Shown: in pieces, positions 36,355 through 61,132 of the stretch
How positions within the stretch are numbered: position 1 is the first letter of the stretch
Layout of the letters: every line of letters starts with the position of its first letter
DNA from: Eubacteriales bacterium
GTDB lineage: Bacteria > Bacillota > Clostridia > Oscillospirales > CAG-272
Assembly (NCBI GenBank): GCA_045658225.1
Contig: JAZOUO010000009.1
Location: 9,456 to 73,455, forward strand
Direction of reading: 5' to 3'
DNA length: 64,000 nucleotides
The notes under the pieces: model-generated
What the model saw: only the letters and a program-made list of their open reading frames with translations
Databases searched by the model: none
What the model was told of the DNA's origin: nothing
Made by a program: the position numbers and the translations under genes

Positions 36355-37359
36355 TTATGATTTTGTTTTGTTTAGCCTTTTTATATATGCGAATGTTTCT
36401 TCTTCGCCCTTTTCGGCAAGCATACGAAGCCATGATTCAAGCAGGTCTGCGGTGTTGGGGTGCATTATATTTTTCGCGCTTCCGCGAAGAAAATAGTCCA
36501 GTGCTGAGCGATCCGTATATTTATCACCCTGATAAATCTTGCTTGCCGCAACTCTGTCACAGAACATTTCCGTCACATATCGCAAAGGCATCTCTATCGG
36601 CACGTATTGCTTGGATTTGAGGTCAACGTCCGTCCAATACTCATAGTGGTGCTTATTTCGTCCCTTGTGGTGCATCCACGCGAGCGAATATCCGTAAAGC
36701 TCGCGGGCGCGCTCGTTTGGACTGCGTGTGCCAAGGTAGTGACGTCTGCCCTCGGAAAACTCTGTGGGAGTATATTTGGACAGATCGTGGAAAAGTCCTT
36801 GCCATCCGATTCCCGCACGAAAACAGTGGGAAATGACCTTGTGTCTGTGCTTGGTTATAGTGCAAAAATGCTTTATAGGATGGGGCTTATCGGGGTTTTT
36901 GGTTTTGTGATCCGATTTGCTCACACCCGCATCCGCAAGCAAGATTTTTCTTGCTTTGAGATACTTTTCGCAGCGAGCTAAAGCATACTCATCGGGAGCC
37001 TCATCAAAGCGAGAAAGTGTGCAGTTATGCTCAAGATCGCAAAGCTTTACACGACGCGCGAGCTCATTGGATTTAAGTCGATTGATATATTCAAAATAGT
37101 CCATATCCTCGGGCTTTGTCAGAAGCTCCACCGCGTCGCAGACCTCGGCGGGAAATTCTGCGCGGATATACTCGGCGGTCACGTCTGTGTCCTCAAGGGT
37201 GTCGTGCAGAAGTGCTGTGAGAGTTGAATACTCGTCCTTCATCTGCTCGGCAAGGTGTATCGGGTGCAAAACGTACGGCAATCCCGACTTATCCGTCTGT
37301 CCCTCGTGGGCTTTGTATATCAGCTTTATTGCTTTGTTTGTAAGTGGTGTGTATATCAT
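36355..37359 (-). CDS. HD-domain (RelA/SpoT-hydrolase-like) protein fused to a His-rich C-terminal domain (DUF5662-like)
   Basis: 334 aa. The N-terminus KAHEGQTDKSGLPYVLHPIHLAE...LLHDTLEDT is alarmone-hydrolase-like. The C-terminus reads LFHDLSKYTPTEF...WMHHKGRNKHHYEYW. Confidence 0.65.
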   Translation of the reverse strand: MIYTPLTNKAIKLIYKAHEGQTDKSGLPYVLHPIHLAEQMKDEYSTLTALLHDTLEDTDVTAEYIRAEFPAEVCDAVELLTKPEDMDYFEYINRLKSNELARRVKLCDLEHNCTLSRFDEAPDEYALARCEKYLKARKILLADAGVSKSDHKTKNPDKPHPIKHFCTITKHRHKVISHCFRAGIGWQGLFHDLSKYTPTEFSEGRRHYLGTRSPNERARELYGYSLAWMHHKGRNKHHYEYWTDVDLKSKQYVPIEMPLRYVTEMFCDRVAASKIYQGDKYTDRSALDYFLRGSAKNIMHPNTADLLESWLRMLAEKGEEETFAYIKRLNKTKS

Positions 37360-38129
37360 TATTTTTCCAATCTGTCCTCAAGGGACTCAATTATGTTTAT
37401 TCCCGCCTTGCTGGCAAGCTCTCTTGCCTTTTGCTCGGTTTCACTATCAATAATATGCGGCACGTGATGCGCGTCTGCTCCAAGGACTGCGGAGCAACCG
37501 TGCTCGACAGCGATTTTCCAGAACTCAAAATTGGGGTAATTTCTGCCCTCTCTCATACCAAGAATGTTTATTTCAAGGGGTATATCATTCTCTTTTGCAG
37601 ACTTGCAAAGTCGGCTCATCTCATATTTATAAAAGTCTGCGTCTCCCACGAAATTCAATATATCAGGGTGAGCAATATAGAGAAATTGTCCTGTTGAAAT
37701 TCCTTCTATTACTTGATCGACGTAGCGAGACAGATGTGTTTTGTCAGTGGTTTTTCGTGAGCAGTAGTGGTCGTTTTGCTCATTGCCGAGCGCGTGTTGA
37801 CCGAGAATGAGGTATTCGTAGGAGTAGTCTGACAGAAATTCAATCATTTGCGGGAACACATCGGGATAATATTCGGCTTCAAAGCCGATGCGTATTTTTA
37901 TATCGTTTTTGTATTCGTCGCACAGGTTCTCAAGGGTTTTTATATATTCGTCCGTCTCATTCAGCTTCATACGGAAATGCGAGTAGTATCCGTCCTCAAA
38001 CGGCATAGGCGCGTGGTCTGAAAAGCCGAGGGTTTTAATGCCTGCGGAAATTGCGTTTTCAATAAATTCTCTTTCACTTCCGCTTGCGTGGTTGCAGCGG
38101 TAGGTGTGGTTATGGTAGGAGTGGAGCAT
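37359..38129 (-). CDS. PHP-family phosphatase (histidinol-phosphatase-like)
   Basis: I prefer the ATG at 38129 (MLHSYHNHTYRCNHA, AAAGGAA RBS). The TTG at 38156 lies upstream of the predicted TSS. PHP His motifs are present. Confidence 0.75.
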   Translation of the reverse strand: MLHSYHNHTYRCNHASGSEREFIENAISAGIKTLGFSDHAPMPFEDGYYSHFRMKLNETDEYIKTLENLCDEYKNDIKIRIGFEAEYYPDVFPQMIEFLSDYSYEYLILGQHALGNEQNDHYCSRKTTDKTHLSRYVDQVIEGISTGQFLYIAHPDILNFVGDADFYKYEMSRLCKSAKENDIPLEINILGMREGRNYPNFEFWKIAVEHGCSAVLGADAHHVPHIIDSETEQKARELASKAGINIIESLEDRLEK

Positions 38130-38160
38130 TTTTATTTCCTTTTTGTTTTTTGTCAAGGTA

Positions 38161-38189
38161 ATTATAGCACTTTTTTGATTGTGTGTCTA
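38161..38189 (-). promoter_or_regulatory. sigma-A-type promoter for the PHP phosphatase operon
   Basis: On the minus strand: TAGACA, 17-nt spacer, TGcTATAAT, about 30 nt upstream of the ATG at 38129. Confidence 0.5.
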
Positions 38190-38215
38190 TAAGTTTTTTG
38201 AATTTTTCTTTTGTT

Positions 38216-38247
38216 GTCGCTTTTTGCCAACAGCGGCAAAAAGTGAC
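38216..38247. repeat. 32-bp palindrome, left boundary of the structured intergenic element
   Basis: GTCGCTTTTTGCC-aacagc-GGCAAAAAGTGAC. It matches the palindrome at 38509-38540 at 25/32 positions. Confidence 0.8.
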
Positions 38248-38259
38248 CAAAAAACGCCG

Positions 38260-38417
38260 CTTAAGAGTGGAGAGTGTCCTAATTTCACTCCCGTGAAATT
38301 TGTTTTCGTGGACGAAAACAACGGACGACCCTCTCCCCGTCTTAAGAATCTCCCCACTCCGCGAGTTTGCAAGCAAACTCGTCTGCACAGTGAGGTACAT
38401 TATCTCCCGTCTTAACC
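38260..38417 (-). ncRNA. candidate structured RNA (unclassified): three-way junction plus CUUG-capped hairpin
   Basis: The outer helix pairs 38260-38274 with 38331-38346 and encloses hairpins at 38281-38300 and 38302-38319. A further hairpin spans 38352-38395. Read on the minus strand, the loops are GGGA (GNRA) and CUUG, and one stem position is U-G rather than C-A. Confidence 0.4.
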
Positions 38418-38460
38418 GCTATGGATGGCAACCGAGTAGGCGTTTGCGTGGGTGGGTTTC

Positions 38461-38492
38461 AAAAGGGCGGGAGGAATCGCAACCTCCCGCCC
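38461..38492 (-). terminator. uvrA rho-independent terminator
   Basis: On the minus strand: GGGCGGGAGG-ttgcgatt-CCTCCCGCCC + TTTT. The plus strand also has a T-run. Confidence 0.75.
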
Positions 38493-38508
38493 TTTGTGGC
38501 TTTTTTTG

Positions 38509-38540
38509 GATACTTTTTGCAGCTATTGGCAAAAAGTATC
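38509..38540. repeat. 32-bp perfect palindrome, right boundary of the structured intergenic element
   Basis: GATACTTTTTGC-agctattg-GCAAAAAGTATC, located 8 nt from the uvrA stop codon. Confidence 0.8.
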
Positions 38541-38547
38541 ATAAAAA

Positions 38548-41379
38548 TCATTTATTTAATATCTTCTTCAAATACTGCCCTGTATAAGAGCCTTGTACTC
38601 TTGCAACCTCCTCGGGTGTGCCAGTGGCAACGATAGTACCGCCTCCCTCTCCCCCCTCGGGGCCGAGGTCAATGATATGATCCGCGGTCTTTATCACGTC
38701 AAGGTTGTGCTCTATAACAAGCACGGTGTTCCCACCGTCGCAGATACGGTTTAGCACCTCAAGAAGCTTTGCCACGTCGTGCGTGTGAAGTCCCGTCGTG
38801 GGCTCGTCAAGAATATATATCGTCTTGCCCGTGCTGCGCTTTGAAAGCTCTGTTGCAAGCTTAACTCTCTGCGCCTCGCCGCCCGAAAGCGTGGTTGACG
38901 ACTGACCAATTTTCACGTAGCCAAGCCCAACATCATAAAGTGTCTGAAGCTTGCGCTGAATTTTGGGGAGTCCATCAAAGAAGGTTATTCCCTCCTCAAC
39001 CGTCATATCAAGCACGTCAAATATATTTTTACCCTTATATTTAACCTCAAGCGTGTCGCGGTTGTATCTCTTTCCCTTGCACACGTCACAGGTCACGTAA
39101 ACGTCGGGCAAGAAGTGCATCTCAATGCACTTAACTCCGTCGCCCTCGCAGGCTTCGCATCTGCCTCCCTTGACGTTAAAGGAAAATCTGCCCGCAGTAT
39201 ATCCCTTTGCCTTTGCATCCTTGGTCTGCGAAAAGAGGTCACGAATGTCCGTAAACAGACCCGTGTAGGTCGCAGGGTTGGAGCGAGGAGTGCGCCCTAT
39301 GGGGCTTTGGTCGATACAGATAACCTTGTCGAGATTTTCAAGTCCCTCAATGCCCTTGTTTTTGCCAGGGTAAGAGATAGCGCGGTTGAGGTCGTGCGCA
39401 AGTTTGGGGTAGATTATACCGTTTACAAGCGAGGACTTACCCGAGCCCGAAACTCCCGTCACGCAGACGAATTTGCCAAGCGGCATCTCAACGTCAATAC
39501 ATTTGAGGTTGTTCTGCTCCGCACCCTTGACAGTCAAATAATTGCCGTTGCCCTCGCGTCGAGACTTTGGCACATCTATCTTCATTCTGCCCGACAGATA
39601 TGCGCCCGTGATGGAATCGGGATTGTTTTTGACCTCGTCGGGAGTTCCTGCCGCCACAACGTGACCGCCGTGTATTCCCGCACCGGGACCTATGTCGATT
39701 ATATAGTCAGACTCCTGCATAGTCTCCTCGTCGTGCTCGACGACGATAACCGTATTTCCTATATCACGCAAGCGTTTGAGGGTTGCTATAAGCTTTGAGT
39801 TATCCCTCTGATGAAGTCCTATGCTGGGCTCGTCAAGTATATAAAGCACGCCAACGAGTGACGAGCCTATCTGTGTGGCAAGTCTTATTCTCTGCGCCTC
39901 GCCGCCCGAGAGCGTTCCCGCCTTGCGCGAAAGCGTGAGATACTCAAGTCCGACGCTCACAAGGAAGCCGAGTCGGGCTCTTATTTCCTTGAGTATCTCG
40001 CGGGATATTTCCTGCTCCGTCTCGGTAAGCGTGAGATTATTGACAAACTCAAGCTCGCGCTCAACCGACATAGCGCAAAAGTCGTGCAGATTTATGCCGC
40101 CCACCGTGACTGCAAGTGACAAGGGGTTAAGTCTTTGTCCGTGACAGTATGCGCAGGGTGCTTCTTCTACAAACTGCTCGTAATATTCCGCCGCCATACC
40201 CATCGCCATTCTCTGCTCTATCATAGGTATAACGCCGTCAAAGGATGCAAGTCGGCGGTGAGCCTCGCCGCCAAAATATCTTACGACGTCGTACTTTTCA
40301 GTGCCGCTTCCGTACATAAGCACGTCATAAGCCTTGTCCGAAAAGTCCTTTATGGGCGTGTTGAGGTCAAATCCGAATTTTTCACCGACTGCGGCAAATA
40401 ACGGACCGTTCCAGCTCTCGTCCTCAAGGGTCTTGAAGCCGTTTACGTTTATCGCTCCTTCGCGGAGTGACAGGGACTTATTGGGTATAACTCTGTCAAG
40501 CGCGATTCGTCTTGTGTCGCCAAGTCCCGAGCAGTGCGGACACGCGCCCTGCGGGTTGTTGAACGAGAACATTCTCGGCTCAAGCTCTCCGACAGAAACT
40601 CCGTGTTCCTCGCAGGCATAGGACTGCGAAAAGGAAAGCTCCTCTCCCTCGCTGTTATCTCTCGGGAGCGTGACGACGAGCAGATGTCCGTCTGCCGCCG
40701 ACAACGCGCTCTCAACCGAATCGGCAAGGCGCGAGCGTATTCCGTCCTTCATTACAAGTCTGTCGACTACTATCTCAATAGAGTGCTTTTTATTCTTGTC
40801 AAGCTTTATCTCCTCGGACAAATCGTATATACTTCCGTCAATTCTGACGCGCGCATAGCCGCTTTTTTTTGCATCCGAGAGCACCTTTTCGTGCATTCCC
40901 TTTTGCGCACGAACAACTGGCGCAAGTATCATAAATCTCTCGCCCTCGGGGAGTGCCGTCACTCGCTCGATTATCTGGTCAACGCTCTGCTGTCTTATCT
41001 CCTTGCCGCAAATGGGACAGTGAGGCACGCCGATGCGCGCGTAGAGCAGACGCAGATAGTCGTATATTTCTGTCACCGTTCCAACTGTGGAACGGGGGTT
41101 TTTTGACGTTGTTTTCTGGTCTATGGAAATAGACGGAGAGAGCCCCTCGATAATATCCACGTCAGGCTTGTCCAGCTGACCGAGAAACATTCTCGCATAG
41201 CTCGAGAGTGACTCCACGAAGCGTCTGTGTCCCTCGGCATACACCGTGTCAAACGCGAGCGACGACTTGCCGCTTCCCGACAGACCCGAAAGCACGACCA
41301 GCTTGTCGCGCGGTATATCGACGTCAATATTCTTGAGGTTGTGTACCCTCGCTCCTCTGATTACTATATTCTGCGCCAT
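38548..41379 (-). CDS. uvrA: excinuclease ABC subunit A
   Basis: 943 aa. [39 protein letters not shown], two ABC modules and zinc-finger Cys motifs. Confidence 0.95.
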
Positions 41380-41386
41380 AATTCTC

Positions 41387-43357
41387 CTATTCTTCCCTTA
41401 TCCTCTTTATCTCGTCACGCAGGTATGCCGCGCGCTCGAAGTCGAGCTTGCGTGCGGCGTTCTTCATCTCGACAGTCATTGATGCGATGAGCTTGTCCTT
41501 TTCCTGCGTTGTCATCTTCTTCTTTGTCTTTGTTTGCTTCTTATTTGACGTATCCTCCGACGCGCCTATGTCGATCACGTCACGCACGCCCTTGATGATT
41601 GTTTTAGGCGTGATACCGTGCGTCTCGTTGTACGCCATCTGAATCTTACGGCGGCGTTCGGTCTCGCGTATCGCACCCGCCATTGAGTTTGTTATGCTAT
41701 CAGCATACATTATGACCTTTCCGCCCGCGTTTCTCGCGGCGCGTCCTATGGTCTGGATAAGAGACCTCTCTGCACGCAAAAAGCCTTCCTTGTCTGCGTC
41801 AAGTATCGCAACGAGCGACACCTCGGGTATATCAAGTCCCTCACGAAGCAAATTTATTCCAACGAGAACGTCGAAAACTCCAAGACGTAGGTCTCGGATT
41901 ATCTCCATTCTCTCCATTGTGTCCACGTTATGATGAATATATCTGACCTTAATTTCATTACTTTCAAGATACTCGGTAAGGTCCTCCGCCATCTTTTTCG
42001 TGAGAGTGGTGACAAGCACCCTCTCGCCCTTTTTAGTGCGCTCACGTATCTCTCCCATAAGGTTGTCTATCTGACCCTCAATGGGGCACACCTCGAGCTC
42101 GGGGTCAACAAGTCCCGTCGGACGAATTATCTGCTCGACGGTCTGCTCCGAGTGTATGTTTTCATAGTCTCCGGGCGTTGCGGAGACGAATATCGCCTGA
42201 TTTATTTTTGACTCAAACTCCTCAAAATAAAGCGGTCTGTTGTCGTATGCTGAGGGCAGTCTGAAGCCATAGTCTATAAGGTTTTTCTTTCTTGCTGTAT
42301 CTCCTCCACTCATTCCCCTGACCTGTGGAAGCGTCACGTGTGACTCGTCCACAAACATAATAAAGTCCTCGGGAAAATAGTCGAGAAGTGTGTAAGGTGT
42401 CGAGCCCGCCGGGCGACGCGCGAGAACTCTCGAATAGTTCTCAACGCCCGAGCAAAAGCCTATTTCTTTTAGCATTTCCATGTCGTACTTGACGCGTTCC
42501 TTTATTCTCTGCGCCTCGATAAGCTTGTTCTCGGACTCAAAATACTCTACGCGGTCGTACATCTCACACATAATGTCAGCTATAGCCGCCTCTCGCTTTT
42601 CGTCGGATACGGCATAGTGAGTTGCGGGGTAAATGGCAACGTAGGAAAGTAGTCTTACATACTCTCCCGTCACAATATTTATCTCTGAAATTCTGTCAAT
42701 TTCGTCGTCGAAAAATTCAATTCTTATAGCCTTATCGTCCATATTTGCGGGGATTATCTCAAGCGTATCCCCACGGACTCGGAAATTGTCACGCGTAAGG
42801 CTCATATCATTTCTCGTATAGCTTATAGCGACCAGTCGCTGTATGAGCTCTTCACGCGACATTATCATTCCCGGACGTAGAGCGAGGACAAGTCCCTTGT
42901 ACTCGTCAGGCTCACCAAGTGAATATATGCACGACACAGAGGCTACGATGATTACGTCTTTTCTCTCGAAAAGAGCGCTCGTAGCCGAATGGCGAAGTCT
43001 GTCTATCTCGTCGTTGATAAGCGCGTCCTTTTCTATATACATATCTTTGCCGGGGATATAAGCCTCAGGCTGATAGTAGTCGTAATAGGACACAAAATAC
43101 TCAACCGCGTTGTCGGGAAAGAACTCCCGAAACTCCGAGCAGAGCTGCGCCGCAAGTGTTTTATTGTGCGCGAGCACCAGGGTGGGCTTGTTTACCTGCG
43201 CTATGACGTTTGCCATAGTGAAGGTCTTACCCGATCCCGTGACGCCCAAAAGAGTCTGCATACGCTTGCCCTCTCGAATGCCGCGCACGAGACCCTCAAT
43301 AGCCTCGGGCTGATCGCCCGAGGCTTGATATTCACTTTTAAGAATGAATTTTTCCAT
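41387..43357 (-). CDS. uvrB: excinuclease ABC subunit B
   Basis: Start moved to the ATG at 43357 ([20 protein letters not shown]). [10 protein letters not shown] and the C-terminal UVR domain are present. Confidence 0.95.
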
Positions 43358-43385
43358 ACTTTTAGTGTTCTCTTTTTTGTGAAAA

Positions 43386-44018
43386 TTATTCTGCTGCTTC
43401 CTCTGTTGCTTCTTCTGTTGCCTCTGCCTCAACCTCAACGGGAGCTTCATCGTCAGCCTTCTTGGATGCCTTTATGTAAGCAATAAGAGAAAGAACGAAG
43501 GAAAGAACCGTGAGAACGATGATAACGATACCTGCTATCATAAGAAGAATGTTTACGATAGCGTCAGCTGCGCCGAGAATAGCGGGAAGGAACACGATAA
43601 GGATAGCACCGATAAGTATTCTGAGCCATTCCTTGGAAAGCTGCTCCTTCTTGGAGGGAGCGATAACTATTCTGATAATGGGAAGAACGATAAGGTAAAT
43701 TGCAAGAAGCACTGTAAGTATCGTAGAAATGATAGCGTTCTGGTAAACGATCATAATAGCTCCGAGCACTACTGCGATAGCGGAAACTATAACGTCAAAC
43801 AGACCTCCCTTTTCCTTGTGAGCAAGGTTTACGATACCTCTGATAAGGGGTGCGATGTTGGTAAGGATAATGATTATACCTGTGACGATAAGCACCCACT
43901 TGATGATTGTGGCAGCTCCAAGTGTGGAGAGGAACAAAAGAAGTCCTCCGAAAATAAGTCCGAATACGAGCGAGATAATTATCTCAGCAAGTACGCTCTT
44001 TTTTGTCTTTGTAGCCAT
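43386..44018 (-). CDS. hypothetical multi-pass membrane protein (DUF308/HdeD-like) with an acidic tail
   Basis: 210 aa with about 6 TM segments. C-terminus [22 protein letters not shown]. Confidence 0.5.
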
Positions 44019-58408: not shown

Positions 58409-59503
58409 ATGAAAAAAGCAGATCTCAAAAAAACAGGTAGACAGGTATCTCCATTGCCTATATTTGTGCTCTTCTTGCTCGTGCTGCTGCTTATATCCCC
58501 CACAGTTTCCTTTGAGTATATGAGGGGCTCGCTCAAACTATGCGTGCAAAGTCTTGTCCCATCGCTTTTTCCTTTTATGATAATTTCGGATTTTCTCATC
58601 TCTAGCGATACGGGAAAAATACTCAAAGTGCTTTTTGCTCGTCCGTTGAGCTTTATATTCGGTACGTCTCGCGAGGGATCGTTTGCAGTGTTGCTTGGCT
58701 TTTTGTGCGGATTTCCCATAGGTGCTAAAAGCGCATTGAAGCTTTACGAGGAGAATAAAATAAGCCACACCGAGCTTTGCCACATAATGAGTTTTGGCAA
58801 CATCCCATCCCCTGCATTTATGTGTGGCGCGGTCGGACTGCTTTTTCAAAGCTCTCGAATTGGAGTAATTCTGTTTGTGTCGCTTATTTTGTCCTCGCTG
58901 ATTTTAGGAACAGTGGGAAGATTTATATACAAATACAACCGCAAGGCTGTCCCCGTATCGCAAAAAAGAACAGATGCGGTAAATGCCTTTACAAGCGCGG
59001 TATCCTCGTCTGCGGTGGTTATGCTGACTGTGTGCGGATACGTGGTGTTTTTCTCTGTGCTTATCGGGTACGCCACACGTCTGTGCGACATAGTTGGCGC
59101 GCCGAAAATACTGCCTGTAATTCTGTCTGGATTGCTTGAAATATCAAACGGAATATCACACTCGGCAGGACTTGGCGGTGATATTTCACCCATACTTGCA
59201 GCGTTTTTTGCGGGATTTTCGGGGCTTTCGGTTATTTTTCAGATAATCTCGCTTGACTCTGGCAGACACATAAGAAAAAAAACCTTTGTTGTCCAAAAGC
59301 TTTTGCAAGGAGTCCTCTGCTCAATTATATGCTTTGTTTTGCTAAAAATCTTTCCTGTGTCAGTCACTCCATCCGCCCCGACGTTGAGTGACATATCCGT
59401 TGAAAGCTACGGGCTTTATATCTGCTTTTTATTCTTCATAAGCGCAACGCTGCCGCTTCTTGCCATGTTTTTTCAAAGAAAAAAAGACTCTCACGAAAAG
59501 TGA
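58409..59503 (+). CDS. ylbJ: sporulation integral membrane protein YlbJ-like (nucleoside-recognition domain)
   Basis: I prefer the ATG at 58409. SLVPSLFPFMIISDFLI and a multi-TM profile. Confidence 0.7.
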   Translation: MKKADLKKTGRQVSPLPIFVLFLLVLLLISPTVSFEYMRGSLKLCVQSLVPSLFPFMIISDFLISSDTGKILKVLFARPLSFIFGTSREGSFAVLLGFLCGFPIGAKSALKLYEENKISHTELCHIMSFGNIPSPAFMCGAVGLLFQSSRIGVILFVSLILSSLILGTVGRFIYKYNRKAVPVSQKRTDAVNAFTSAVSSSAVVMLTVCGYVVFFSVLIGYATRLCDIVGAPKILPVILSGLLEISNGISHSAGLGGDISPILAAFFAGFSGLSVIFQIISLDSGRHIRKKTFVVQKLLQGVLCSIICFVLLKIFPVSVTPSAPTLSDISVESYGLYICFLFFISATLPLLAMFFQRKKDSHEK

Positions 59504-59519
59504 TAGCCTATGAAAAATT

Positions 59520-59559
59520 ATAAAAACACAAAAGCACCTACGCTTTTGCATAGGTGCTT
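59520..59559 (-). terminator. terminator of the distal tRNA-like unit
   Basis: On the minus strand: AAGCACCTA-tgcaaaagcg-TAGGTGCTT + TTTGTGTTTTT. Confidence 0.75.
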
Positions 59560-59664
59560 TGGAGCTGGTAATCAGAATTCAACTGATGACCGACGTTTGC
59601 GTAGCAAACTCGCGGCAGTGAGCGAAGCGAACGTATGTCGTCCTTACCAATGACGTGCTCTACC
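59560..59664 (-). ncRNA. tRNA-Thr-derived tRNA-like unit 1 (46-nt variable-loop insert, degenerate 5' half)
   Basis: The D-stem 3' strand and anticodon stem-loop are identical to the real tRNA at 21/21 nt. Variable-3'/T-arm/acceptor-3'/CCA match at 30/32. The insert lies at 59592-59637. The T-loop reads TTGAATT. Confidence 0.55.
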
Positions 59665-59675
59665 CCTCAAATCAT

Positions 59676-59715
59676 ACATAAACACAAAAGCACCCACGCT
59701 TTTGCATAGGTGCTT
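59676..59715 (-). terminator. terminator of tRNA-like unit 2
   Basis: Same hairpin as the other two terminators. The single arm difference gives a U-G pair on the minus strand and a C-A mismatch on the plus strand. Confidence 0.75.
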
Positions 59716-59829
59716 TGGAGCTGGTAATCAGAATTCAACTGATGACCCGACGTTTGCGTAGCAAACTCGCGGCAGTGAGCGAGCAATGTGAGCGAACGTA
59801 TGTCGTCCTTACCAATGACGTGCTCTACC
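59716..59829 (-). ncRNA. tRNA-Thr-derived tRNA-like unit 2 (55-nt variable-loop insert, degenerate 5' half)
   Basis: Same architecture as unit 1. The insert lies at 59748-59802 and differs from unit 1 by an 8-nt internal indel plus 1 nt. Confidence 0.55.
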
Positions 59830-59840
59830 CCTCAAGTCAT

Positions 59841-59880
59841 ACACAAACACAAAAGCACCTACGCTATTGCATAGGTGCTT
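59841..59880 (-). terminator. terminator of tRNA-Thr
   Basis: On the minus strand: AAGCACCTA-tgcaatagcg-TAGGTGCTT + TTTGTGTTTGTGT. Confidence 0.75.
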
Positions 59881-59956
59881 TGGAGCTGGTAATCAGAATC
59901 GAACTGATGACCTCGTCATTACCAATGACGTGCTCTACCGACTGAGCCATACCAGC
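59881..59956 (-). tRNA. tRNA-Thr (anticodon GGT), CCA encoded
   Basis: Hand-folded as GCTGGTA-TG-GCTC-AGTCGGTA-GAGC-A-CGTCA-TTGGTAA-TGACG-AGGTC-ATCAG-TTCGATT-CTGAT-TACCAGC-T-CCA. All four stems are perfect. Confidence 0.9.
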
Positions 59957-60013
59957 GAAGTATGAGCTTGTGTGGCGCAAGGAGGTAGCGCAAAACCACC
60001 AAAGGTGGTGAAA

Positions 60014-60035
60014 CTACCGACTGAGCCATACCAGC
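60014..60035 (-). repeat. exact 22-nt duplicate of the tRNA-Thr 5' end (acceptor 5' strand + D-stem/loop)
   Basis: ctaccgactgagccataccagc is identical to 59935-59956 and sits 79 nt upstream on the minus strand. Confidence 0.9.
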
Positions 60036-60882: not shown

Positions 60883-61132
60883 TAAAAATTAAAACACTTT
60901 GATCGGAAGTAGTAAATTGTGAGTCCTTTGCAGAGAGTGGGCGGTCGGTGCGAGCCTACAAGGATAGCTTTTGAAGTCGTCCGTTAGTGGTGTGGGTGAA
61001 GGCGTCCGCATATAGCCTGCAACGGTTGCTCCGTTATAGCATAAGAGAGATATTTGCCAAGAGGCAAGTATAAATTAGGTGGTACCGCGTGTATTATTAT
61101 GCGTCCTGATGTTTTACATCAGGGCATTTTTT
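60883..61132 (+). promoter_or_regulatory. T-box riboswitch leader (Val specifier) with terminator/antiterminator
   Basis: T-box sequence AAATTAGGTGGTACCGCG at 61072-61089. AGAGAG/GGTGCGA stem I elements. GTC codons at 60976-60981 in the specifier region. Terminator GTCCTGATG-tttta-CATCAGGGC + TTTTTT at 61103-61132. Confidence 0.85.

Follow-up and report, generated by a model that had tools for sequence, protein, structure and literature searches.

The BIMEs of enterobacteria and the modular BOX elements of Streptococcus pneumoniae are built from palindromic units and short motifs, and roles in transcription termination and in the stability of mRNA 3' ends have been proposed for them; for REP/BIME elements in particular, a role as stop structures at 3' ends has been put forward. 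MITEs with structured interiors, such as the Correia elements of Neisseria, ERIC and the bcr1 elements of Bacillus cereus, may carry terminators or parts of outward-facing promoters. Cassette systems are represented by the attC cassettes of integrons and by the pdif modules of Acinetobacter plasmids. REP sequences and REPINs are mobilised by RAYT transposases (Bertels and Rainey, PMC3116915; PMC3337134), a REP sequence has been described as a 3' UTR regulator (bioRxiv 10.64898/2026.03.23.713779), and BIME, BOX and MITE elements have been reviewed (PMC3184786; see also PMC11602168 for MITEs).

Here we analyze a window of 64 kb of DNA in which positions 38,200-38,554 probably represent one member of a dispersed repeat family that is non-coding, mosaic, palindromic and MITE/REPIN/BIME-like. 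The repeat family is new, but elements of its kind are known, and its likenesses to the described systems are divided among them. As in a REPIN, two homologous inverted hairpin units bound a non-coding, extragenic, multi-copy unit at gene 3' ends, and the hairpin stems of the window family are kept by compensatory change. Unlike a REPIN, in which a short linker gives one long hairpin, the unit holds 239 nt (~240) of independently folding modules between its hairpin units. In further differences from REPINs, a weak test found no RAYT/Y1 transposase here, a conserved GTAG-type tetranucleotide was not recognized, and the host belongs to a low-GC clostridial MAG clade. With BIME and BOX elements the unit shares a mosaic make-up, modules that are present or absent between copies, an intergenic position and stable structures, but there is no sequence relation, and its three-way junction and GC-rich hairpin (loop AATCGCAA) are specific to the clade of the window. 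It resembles a MITE in its terminal inverted repeats (50-nt arms, 80% complementary), its length of a few hundred bp, its lack of coding capacity, its many copies in either orientation near gene ends, and the outward TTGGCA/TTGACA hexamers in the terminal hairpins of the window family. It differs from a MITE in that we identified neither a target-site duplication nor, in 1.13 Mb of sequence, a parent IS, and in that the terminal repeats are themselves hairpins. Finally, the unit is like attC and pdif cassettes in having fixed palindromic sites with interchangeable inserts, such that one locus carries differing cores in differing orientations; unlike those cassettes, its cargo is non-coding, and the sequence of its hairpins is unlike dif or attC.

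The folded segment lies in the gap 38130-38547 between uvrA and a gene for a PHP-domain phosphatase. All genes around this gap are encoded on the minus strand: uvrB (41387-43450), uvrA (38548-41379, stop codon 38548-38550), the PHP-domain phosphatase gene (37359-38129, start codon at 38129), a gene for an HD/DUF5662 protein (36355-37359) and, near the gap, genes for a PBP5-type carboxypeptidase and a PGI-family protein. Three ORFs overlap the gap, none of them with a Pfam match. A prior reading made from the sequence alone (the sequence-only reading) had described the segment as an unclassified, highly structured RNA-like domain located downstream of a uvrA terminator and upstream of a predicted promoter of the PHP operon. 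The promoter is a strong promoter-like site on the minus strand (TAGACA-17-TG-TATAAT, 38161-38189) in the flank, outside the repeat. It is kept in all relatives (TAGACA-17-TGcTATAAT), whichever way the element points.

Every helix that had been listed for the segment is present at its coordinates. The three-way-junction module (38260-38346) is closed by an outer helix, interrupted by a bulged G and a single T.C mismatch, of CTTAAGAGTGGAGAG (38260-38274) and CTCTCCCCGTCTTAAG (38331-38346), and by a junction helix (38275-38279/38323-38327) that contains GTCC (38276-38279) and GGAC (38323-38326). These helices enclose a first hairpin of AATTTCAC/GTGAAATT (38281-38300) and a second of GTTTTCG/CGAAAAC (38302-38319). 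A third hairpin (38352-38395) follows, with the inner stem CGAGTTTG/CAAACTCG (38362-38381). Folding of positions 38245-38430 (186 nt) gave -67.2 kcal/mol (z = -3.88) for the minus strand and -56.3 kcal/mol (z = -3.82) for the plus strand, and 0 of 200 shuffles folded as well on either strand. The segment is thus highly structured, as had been claimed, in that it folds far better than shuffles on both strands. It is also unclassified: searches with Rfam 15 at gathering thresholds and at a permissive E-value, covering the whole window and, at permissive thresholds, positions 38100-38600, returned chance-level matches only for the segment.

The folded domain is just the core of the 350-bp unit at 38,200-38,554. 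The unit is bounded by two hairpin units of ~50 nt (38209-38258 and 38498-38547), both absent from the sequence-only reading, that are inverted and 80% complementary to each other. The left terminal hairpin unit (38205-38259) has arms at 38209-38228 and 38235-38254 around the spacer AACAGC, and the right one (38498-38547) has arms at 38502-38520 and 38529-38547 around the spacer AGCTATTG and abuts the uvrA stop codon, its end being one base away from it. The two units are inverted, since the right spacer is the complement of CAATAGCT, against AACAGC on the left. More generally, the terminal hairpin consists of arms of ~12-13 bp, flanking T/A runs and an asymmetric spacer of 6-8 bp; within the 64 kb this palindrome occurs at these two places only, and a left-type terminal unit bounds every copy that we found. 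On the minus strand of window positions 38202-38230, and at equivalent positions in other copies, the terminal hairpin contains an outward -35-like hexamer (TTGGCA/TTGACA) that makes a weak promoter-like site with an A/T-rich flank.

In the left unit the arms are followed by an A-run (38249-38254) and CGCCG. An A-run (CCAAAAAACGCCG) lies immediately inside the left unit and a mirror T-run (GTGGCTTTTTTTGG) immediately inside the right one. Between them, the three-way junction is joined by the hairpin module (38352-38395), which is found in the subfamilies that we call A and B and in whose place subfamily C carries GCGCC-TTCG-GGCGC, and by a module CCGTCTTAACCG...GAGTAGGCGTTTGCGTGGGTGGGTTTC (38403-38461). 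The latter contains the second occurrence of a direct repeat, CCCGTCTTAA (38336-38345 and 38406-38415). The motif CCGTCTTAAC(C/T)G occurs in all three subfamilies, independent of the sequence of the outer helix, and is missing from some short copies. The last module of the core is a GC-rich hairpin (38462-38495; arms 38462-38474 and 38483-38495, loop AATCGCAA at 38475-38482), flanked by AAAA before and TTT after. Its stems covary between copies (GGGCGGGAGG, GGGAGAGAGG, GGAAAGGGAGG) and its 8-nt loop is conserved. On the plus strand it is succeeded by GTGGC and a T-run (38496-38509, T7 at 38501-38507) that mirrors the A-run at the opposite end of the core; other copies likewise show ...GCGGCGTTTTTTGG.

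A GC-rich hairpin with a U-run, as in a terminator, is thus present in the unit by sequence. The plus strand reads the hairpin 38462-38495 and then T7, and the minus strand reads the hairpin and then TTTT, followed by the outer helix and then CGGCGTTTTTTGG; on the uvrA-sense strand the hairpin is trailed by just four U. Judged by these features, the GC-rich hairpin looks terminator-like in both directions. The hairpin 38462-38495, which had been taken for a terminator of uvrA, belongs to the repeat unit itself and lies inside the bracket formed by the terminal hairpins.

We asked how the three-way junction has changed among 20 distinct copies. Standard pairs make up 98.4% of the pair cells, compared with only 36-57% in slid registers, and the covariation score is 0.317 versus 0.152 in shuffles, with 0 of 500 shuffles reaching 0.317. 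Conservation with covariation is thus supported: both sides have changed in compensatory fashion at 12 of the 28 base pairs, in all five helices, although the copies form few subfamilies, so that these double changes stand for a limited number of events. The segment is a real, conserved, unclassified structure.

The evidence for one particular strand is of a different kind. A dedicated minus-strand RNA, possibly an independent sRNA, had been proposed, and another idea is that the copies are a family of paralogous genes for trans-acting small RNAs, each with its own promoter and a fixed strand and each ending at the GC-rich hairpin and U-run, with the terminal hairpins being incidental. The strong covariation of the helices between subfamilies fits such a family, as do the GC-rich hairpin and T-run with their conserved 8-nt loop and the first-hairpin loops, which on the strand preferred in the sequence-only reading are GGGA, GAGA or GGAA (all GNRA) in most copies. 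However, the loop is also GGTA, which is not GNRA, and G.U pairs show no strand bias: in 15 full copies their share of all pairs is 6.4% for one strand and 5.9% for its complement, and the folding energies are alike. Neither strand is favored by the outer-helix mismatches, which across copies are T.C, A.C or C.C, and the sole invariant wobble, a T.G at the junction, favors the strand opposite to the one chosen. A promoter scan of 19 copies detected no recurring promoter-like (sigma-70-like) site in the core or immediately before it, whichever strand was read; the recurrent sites were the PHP promoter and, in the terminal hairpins only, the weak outward TTGGCA/TTGACA hexamers. Furthermore, three composite copies (L025, L026 and L029) hold two cores head to head, copies point both ways relative to the abutting gene, and a SNP in the population at position 38279 (C in the window and L001, G in L002-L004) disrupts the junction pair C38279-G38323 without compensation. 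These observations do not sustain a dedicated minus-strand RNA or an independent sRNA, and we regard a family of small RNA genes as unlikely. The compensatory change in the internal modules nevertheless exceeds what a purely selfish DNA element would need, and it leaves room for a role at the RNA level.

To find further copies, we searched a set of genomes, one for each GTDB species, for a strict junction pattern, GTCGYYCGN{24,42}AAATTAGRRCAYYCTYC, for which we estimate that ~3 matches would be expected by chance. The pattern occurs at 16 loci: three MAGs of the clade have five each, and a MAG from roe-deer cecum has one. In related MAGs, which are fragmented, the family thus numbers five or more copies per genome; the window copy is the single copy in its 64 kb. 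A match to a multi-copy selfish repeat whose hairpins act at the DNA level had been named beforehand as the finding that would speak against a functional RNA, and with regard to copy number the segment does match such a repeat. Rfam searches of 16 related loci returned a THF riboswitch and a T-box elsewhere only.

The layout of the copies is shared: terminal hairpin, A-run, three-way junction, hairpin module, optional modules, GC-rich hairpin (AATCGCAA), T-run and terminal hairpin, in units of 257-427 bp. Subfamily A comprises the window copy, L019-L021 and L025a; subfamily B comprises L008, L011, L023, L024, L026, L027 and L029-L031; and subfamily C occurs only between uvrA and PHP, in sense orientation. 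Nearly all copies abut at least one stop codon, with gaps of -13 to ~20 nt, and five lie between convergent genes, among which the L030 copy exactly fills the gap. Relative to the abutting gene, copies point one way about as often as the other, and most copies adjoin unrelated genes. In nhmmer comparisons the window copy scored 194-211 bits against L020, L021 and L030, which are at other loci in other species, versus 104-107 bits against L007 and L010 at the orthologous locus. By these scores, the window copy is nearer to copies from other loci in other species than to copies from its own orthologous locus. Several copies lie at synteny breakpoints (L008/L022 and L019; L020, L024, L030 and L031): one MAG has PALP-element-PHP where others have uvrA-element-PHP, and the flanks of one copy in one MAG match those of two different copies in another.

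Relatives of the uvrA-PHP locus were found through homologs of the PHP protein (P0001 is identical to the window protein), and the contigs were compared. Apart from one SNP, the window is matched by four further assemblies of its species (L001-L004). Among the more distant relatives, L007, L005, L009 and L010 (PHP identity 81-88%) and, in addition, L018 have the same terminal hairpins and a homologous core in the orientation opposite to that of the window, whereas L008 and L011 are oriented as the window. Cores antisense to PHP belong to subfamily A in the window and to subfamily B in L008 and L011, and those sense to PHP (L005, L007, L009, L010 and L018) belong to subfamily C; the terminal hairpins are common to both sets. 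The window and L010 share both terminal hairpins and differ in the subfamily and direction of their cores, and the right unit of the window is identical to the uvrA-proximal hairpin of L010. The PHP-proximal hairpin of the window recurs in L009 and L010 around other cores, and L009 combines this hairpin with the uvrA-proximal hairpin of L007. These combinations show free recombination of hairpins and cores at this locus. In L010 (2440-2470, the same as L028) the loop of the GC-rich hairpin is flipped, reading TTGCGATT rather than AATCGCAA, and the orientation of the remaining core is unchanged, which makes this a local inversion across the stem.

The gene order at the locus also varies. Another gene lies upstream of the unit in L008, and two extra genes separate uvrA from the element in L005; therefore, it is the PHP promoter region, not uvrA, that the unit accompanies. 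The L005 insertion (1061-1956) carries HTH_3 and YpsA-like genes, with the unit still just upstream of the PHP promoter. In L014 only part of the unit remains.

The same comparison bears on the proposal that the segment is a leader of the PHP operon, or more generally that it regulates the PHP/HD operon in cis, as a leader or riboswitch. The cores of L005, L007, L009, L010 and L018 do lie upstream of PHP in the sense orientation. However, the conserved PHP promoter is downstream of the unit, the core is antisense in the window, L008 and L011, several relatives carry an inverted core or one of another subfamily, most copies adjoin unrelated genes, and the distant relative L017 (61% PHP identity) has a 62-nt gap without the element. 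A riboswitch or leader would lie between a promoter and a start codon, keep a fixed sense and accompany one gene family, and the unit does none of these. The leader reading is refuted by promoter position, orientation and the distribution of copies, and we give it next to no credence. The proposed switch or attenuator, in which the strand at 38403-38416 would compete with the outer helix for the same partner, fares no better. The second strand belongs to the CCGTCTTAAC(C/T)G module, and its extensive pairing (38403-38415) is present in the window copy and a few close relatives only; in subfamily B, the commonest, TTAA alone is able to pair with the 5' strand. The alternative pairing is thus unconserved, and the 13-nt identity is a trait of the window copy. 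The unit is not a riboswitch, a leader or a locus-specific sRNA at uvrA/PHP, and this false lead can be removed.

A further possibility is that the unit is an inverton: inversion of the core by a site-specific recombinase acting at the two inverted terminal hairpins would then alter read-through from uvrA into the PHP operon. The hairpin units resemble the core sites of recombinases in their arms of 12-13 bp, asymmetric 6-8-bp spacers and inverted arrangement, and both orientations are found at three orthologous loci, two of them beyond uvrA-PHP (L020 versus L030, and L024 versus L031). But the opposite cores at uvrA-PHP differ in subfamily, which means replacement and not a simple flip, and assemblies of the same species agree in orientation, both for the window and L001-L004 and for L011-L013. 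Across the five same-species assemblies, which show a single orientation, there is no sign of ongoing flipping of the core. Moreover, the core has no promoter, structure and U-run are present in both orientations, and no recombinase gene is nearby. We consider an inverton very unlikely.

Core swaps, synteny breaks and similarity across loci together point to the behavior of a mobile or recombining repeat rather than that of a locus-specific regulator. No transposase, recombinase or autonomous partner was found adjoining a copy in 1.13 Mb of sequence around copies and hairpins. We clustered 506 adjacent ORFs and searched representatives against Pfam, which returned housekeeping genes only; the genes nearest to terminal hairpins include recF, dnaN, cysS, MatE and ABC. 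A phmmer search of the 1.13 Mb with an IS200 TnpA query had no match, although this was a weak test. No direct repeat that could represent a target-site duplication is visible at the outer ends of copies, and no empty site was found inside the low-GC clade, L017 being without the element but distant. BLASTN of the unit against plasmids gave no match, and searches of IMG/VR with the GC-rich-hairpin module and with the terminal hairpin gave 0 matches.

These searches also weigh on the idea that the copies are non-autonomous versions of a guide or scaffold RNA belonging to an RNA-guided mobile element, such as the omega RNA of IscB/TnpB or the bridge RNA of IS110. Copies that are numerous, strongly structured and covarying, and that sit at mobile-looking units bounded by hairpins, would fit this idea. 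However, there is no Rfam match, HEARO included, and no IscB, TnpB or IS110-like ORF adjoins any copy in the sequence examined. The ends are inverted, unlike the direct-oriented hairpins of IS200/IS605, and pairing is symmetric between strands. We judge this origin to be highly improbable.

On the reading that we favor, that of a dispersed mosaic palindromic repeat, the unit probably serves as a two-way transcription stop at gene ends, as predicted from its GC-rich hairpin and U-runs. In either orientation, a transcript entering from the neighboring gene would meet a GC-rich structure and a U-run before the end of the unit, and here, with the PHP operon having its own promoter, the unit would form a two-way stop or 3'-end structure that separates this operon from uvrA. 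The unit is presumably spread, and its cores exchanged, by recombination or transposition at the terminal hairpins.

The terminal hairpin itself extends beyond the clade. A metagenome scan for this hairpin returned at least 120 loci; those listed have a median GC of 0.60 and, by the record names that state a source, most seem to come from human gut. Among the matches listed are pairs of hairpins that are inverted and 350-470 nt apart, and solo long hairpins too. BLASTN of the unit against phages gave matches to the terminal hairpin alone; the two fecal contigs that matched, labeled 'Bacteriophage sp.' and unverified, have unrelated, GC-rich cores. When the window core was compared by nhmmer with 122 hairpin loci (L034-L155; 120 metagenome loci and two from the phage collection), no match was obtained; therefore, the cores are specific to the clade. 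Marine (TARA) and other environmental contigs with a GC of 0.39-0.64 carry a near-identical terminal hairpin with CAAAAAAYGCCGC (among L036-L155; e.g. L086 11083, L097 3018 and L152 572), set within mosaic repeats of other kinds. This marine form had no match in plasmids or E. coli genomes, and Rfam searches of these hairpin elements returned no family.

Speaking for mobility, one orthologous site is found both empty and filled in a high-GC gut family with the same terminal hairpin. L042 and L114 have a solo hairpin with a 23-bp stem at this site, and L143, L116 and L074 have a mosaic element of ~620 nt between the inner and outer hairpin arm, together with an extra inverted small hairpin. The insertion lies inside the solo hairpin, with no obvious duplication.

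An end of ~40 nt is thus nearly identical across very different hosts, around unrelated cores. That the terminal hairpin is common to unrelated repeat families in distant habitats points to a common mobilizing or binding factor. One speculative answer, to which we attach a low probability, is that the terminal hairpin (CTTTYTGNCAAYAGCNNCARAAAG, N4, CAAAAAAYGCCGC) is the recognition site of a widespread recombinase or hairpin-specific transposase that exchanges structured non-coding cassettes. Such an enzyme would insert, invert and exchange cassettes at gene ends, as a non-coding counterpart of integron and pdif cassettes. If true, this would explain the near-identity of the hairpin in the low-GC clade, in human-gut Clostridia with a GC of ~0.6 and in marine and environmental contigs with unrelated cores, and it would also explain the different cores between the same hairpins and the compensatory change in the internal modules.

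The present analysis documents a repeat family of uncultured gut Clostridia that has no description in Rfam, and our literature search likewise found none. Because its covariation is of the textbook kind, the family will lead screens for structured RNAs astray. It also marks synteny breakpoints and probably breaks assemblies.

Two other structured regions of the window came to our attention. An intact tRNA-Thr(GGU) (59881-59956, within region 59470-60035, minus strand) is followed by two tRNA-Thr-like units of ~160 nt, each with an altered 5' part, an insert of ~50 nt at the position of the variable loop and an identical terminator hairpin at its end; a partial tRNA 5' part is also present at 60014-60035. 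The insert holds a hairpin (CGCGAGTTTGCTACGCAAACG) similar to the module at 38362-38381, with which it shares a 12-mer, possibly by chance. We estimate that ~2-3 such 12-mer matches would arise by chance in 64 kb, and a kinship between the hairpin at 38362-38381 and this tRNA-like insert at 59.5 kb was dropped from consideration. Finally, a T-box leader lies on the plus strand at 60890-61111, with a score of 125 bits versus a gathering score of 93.
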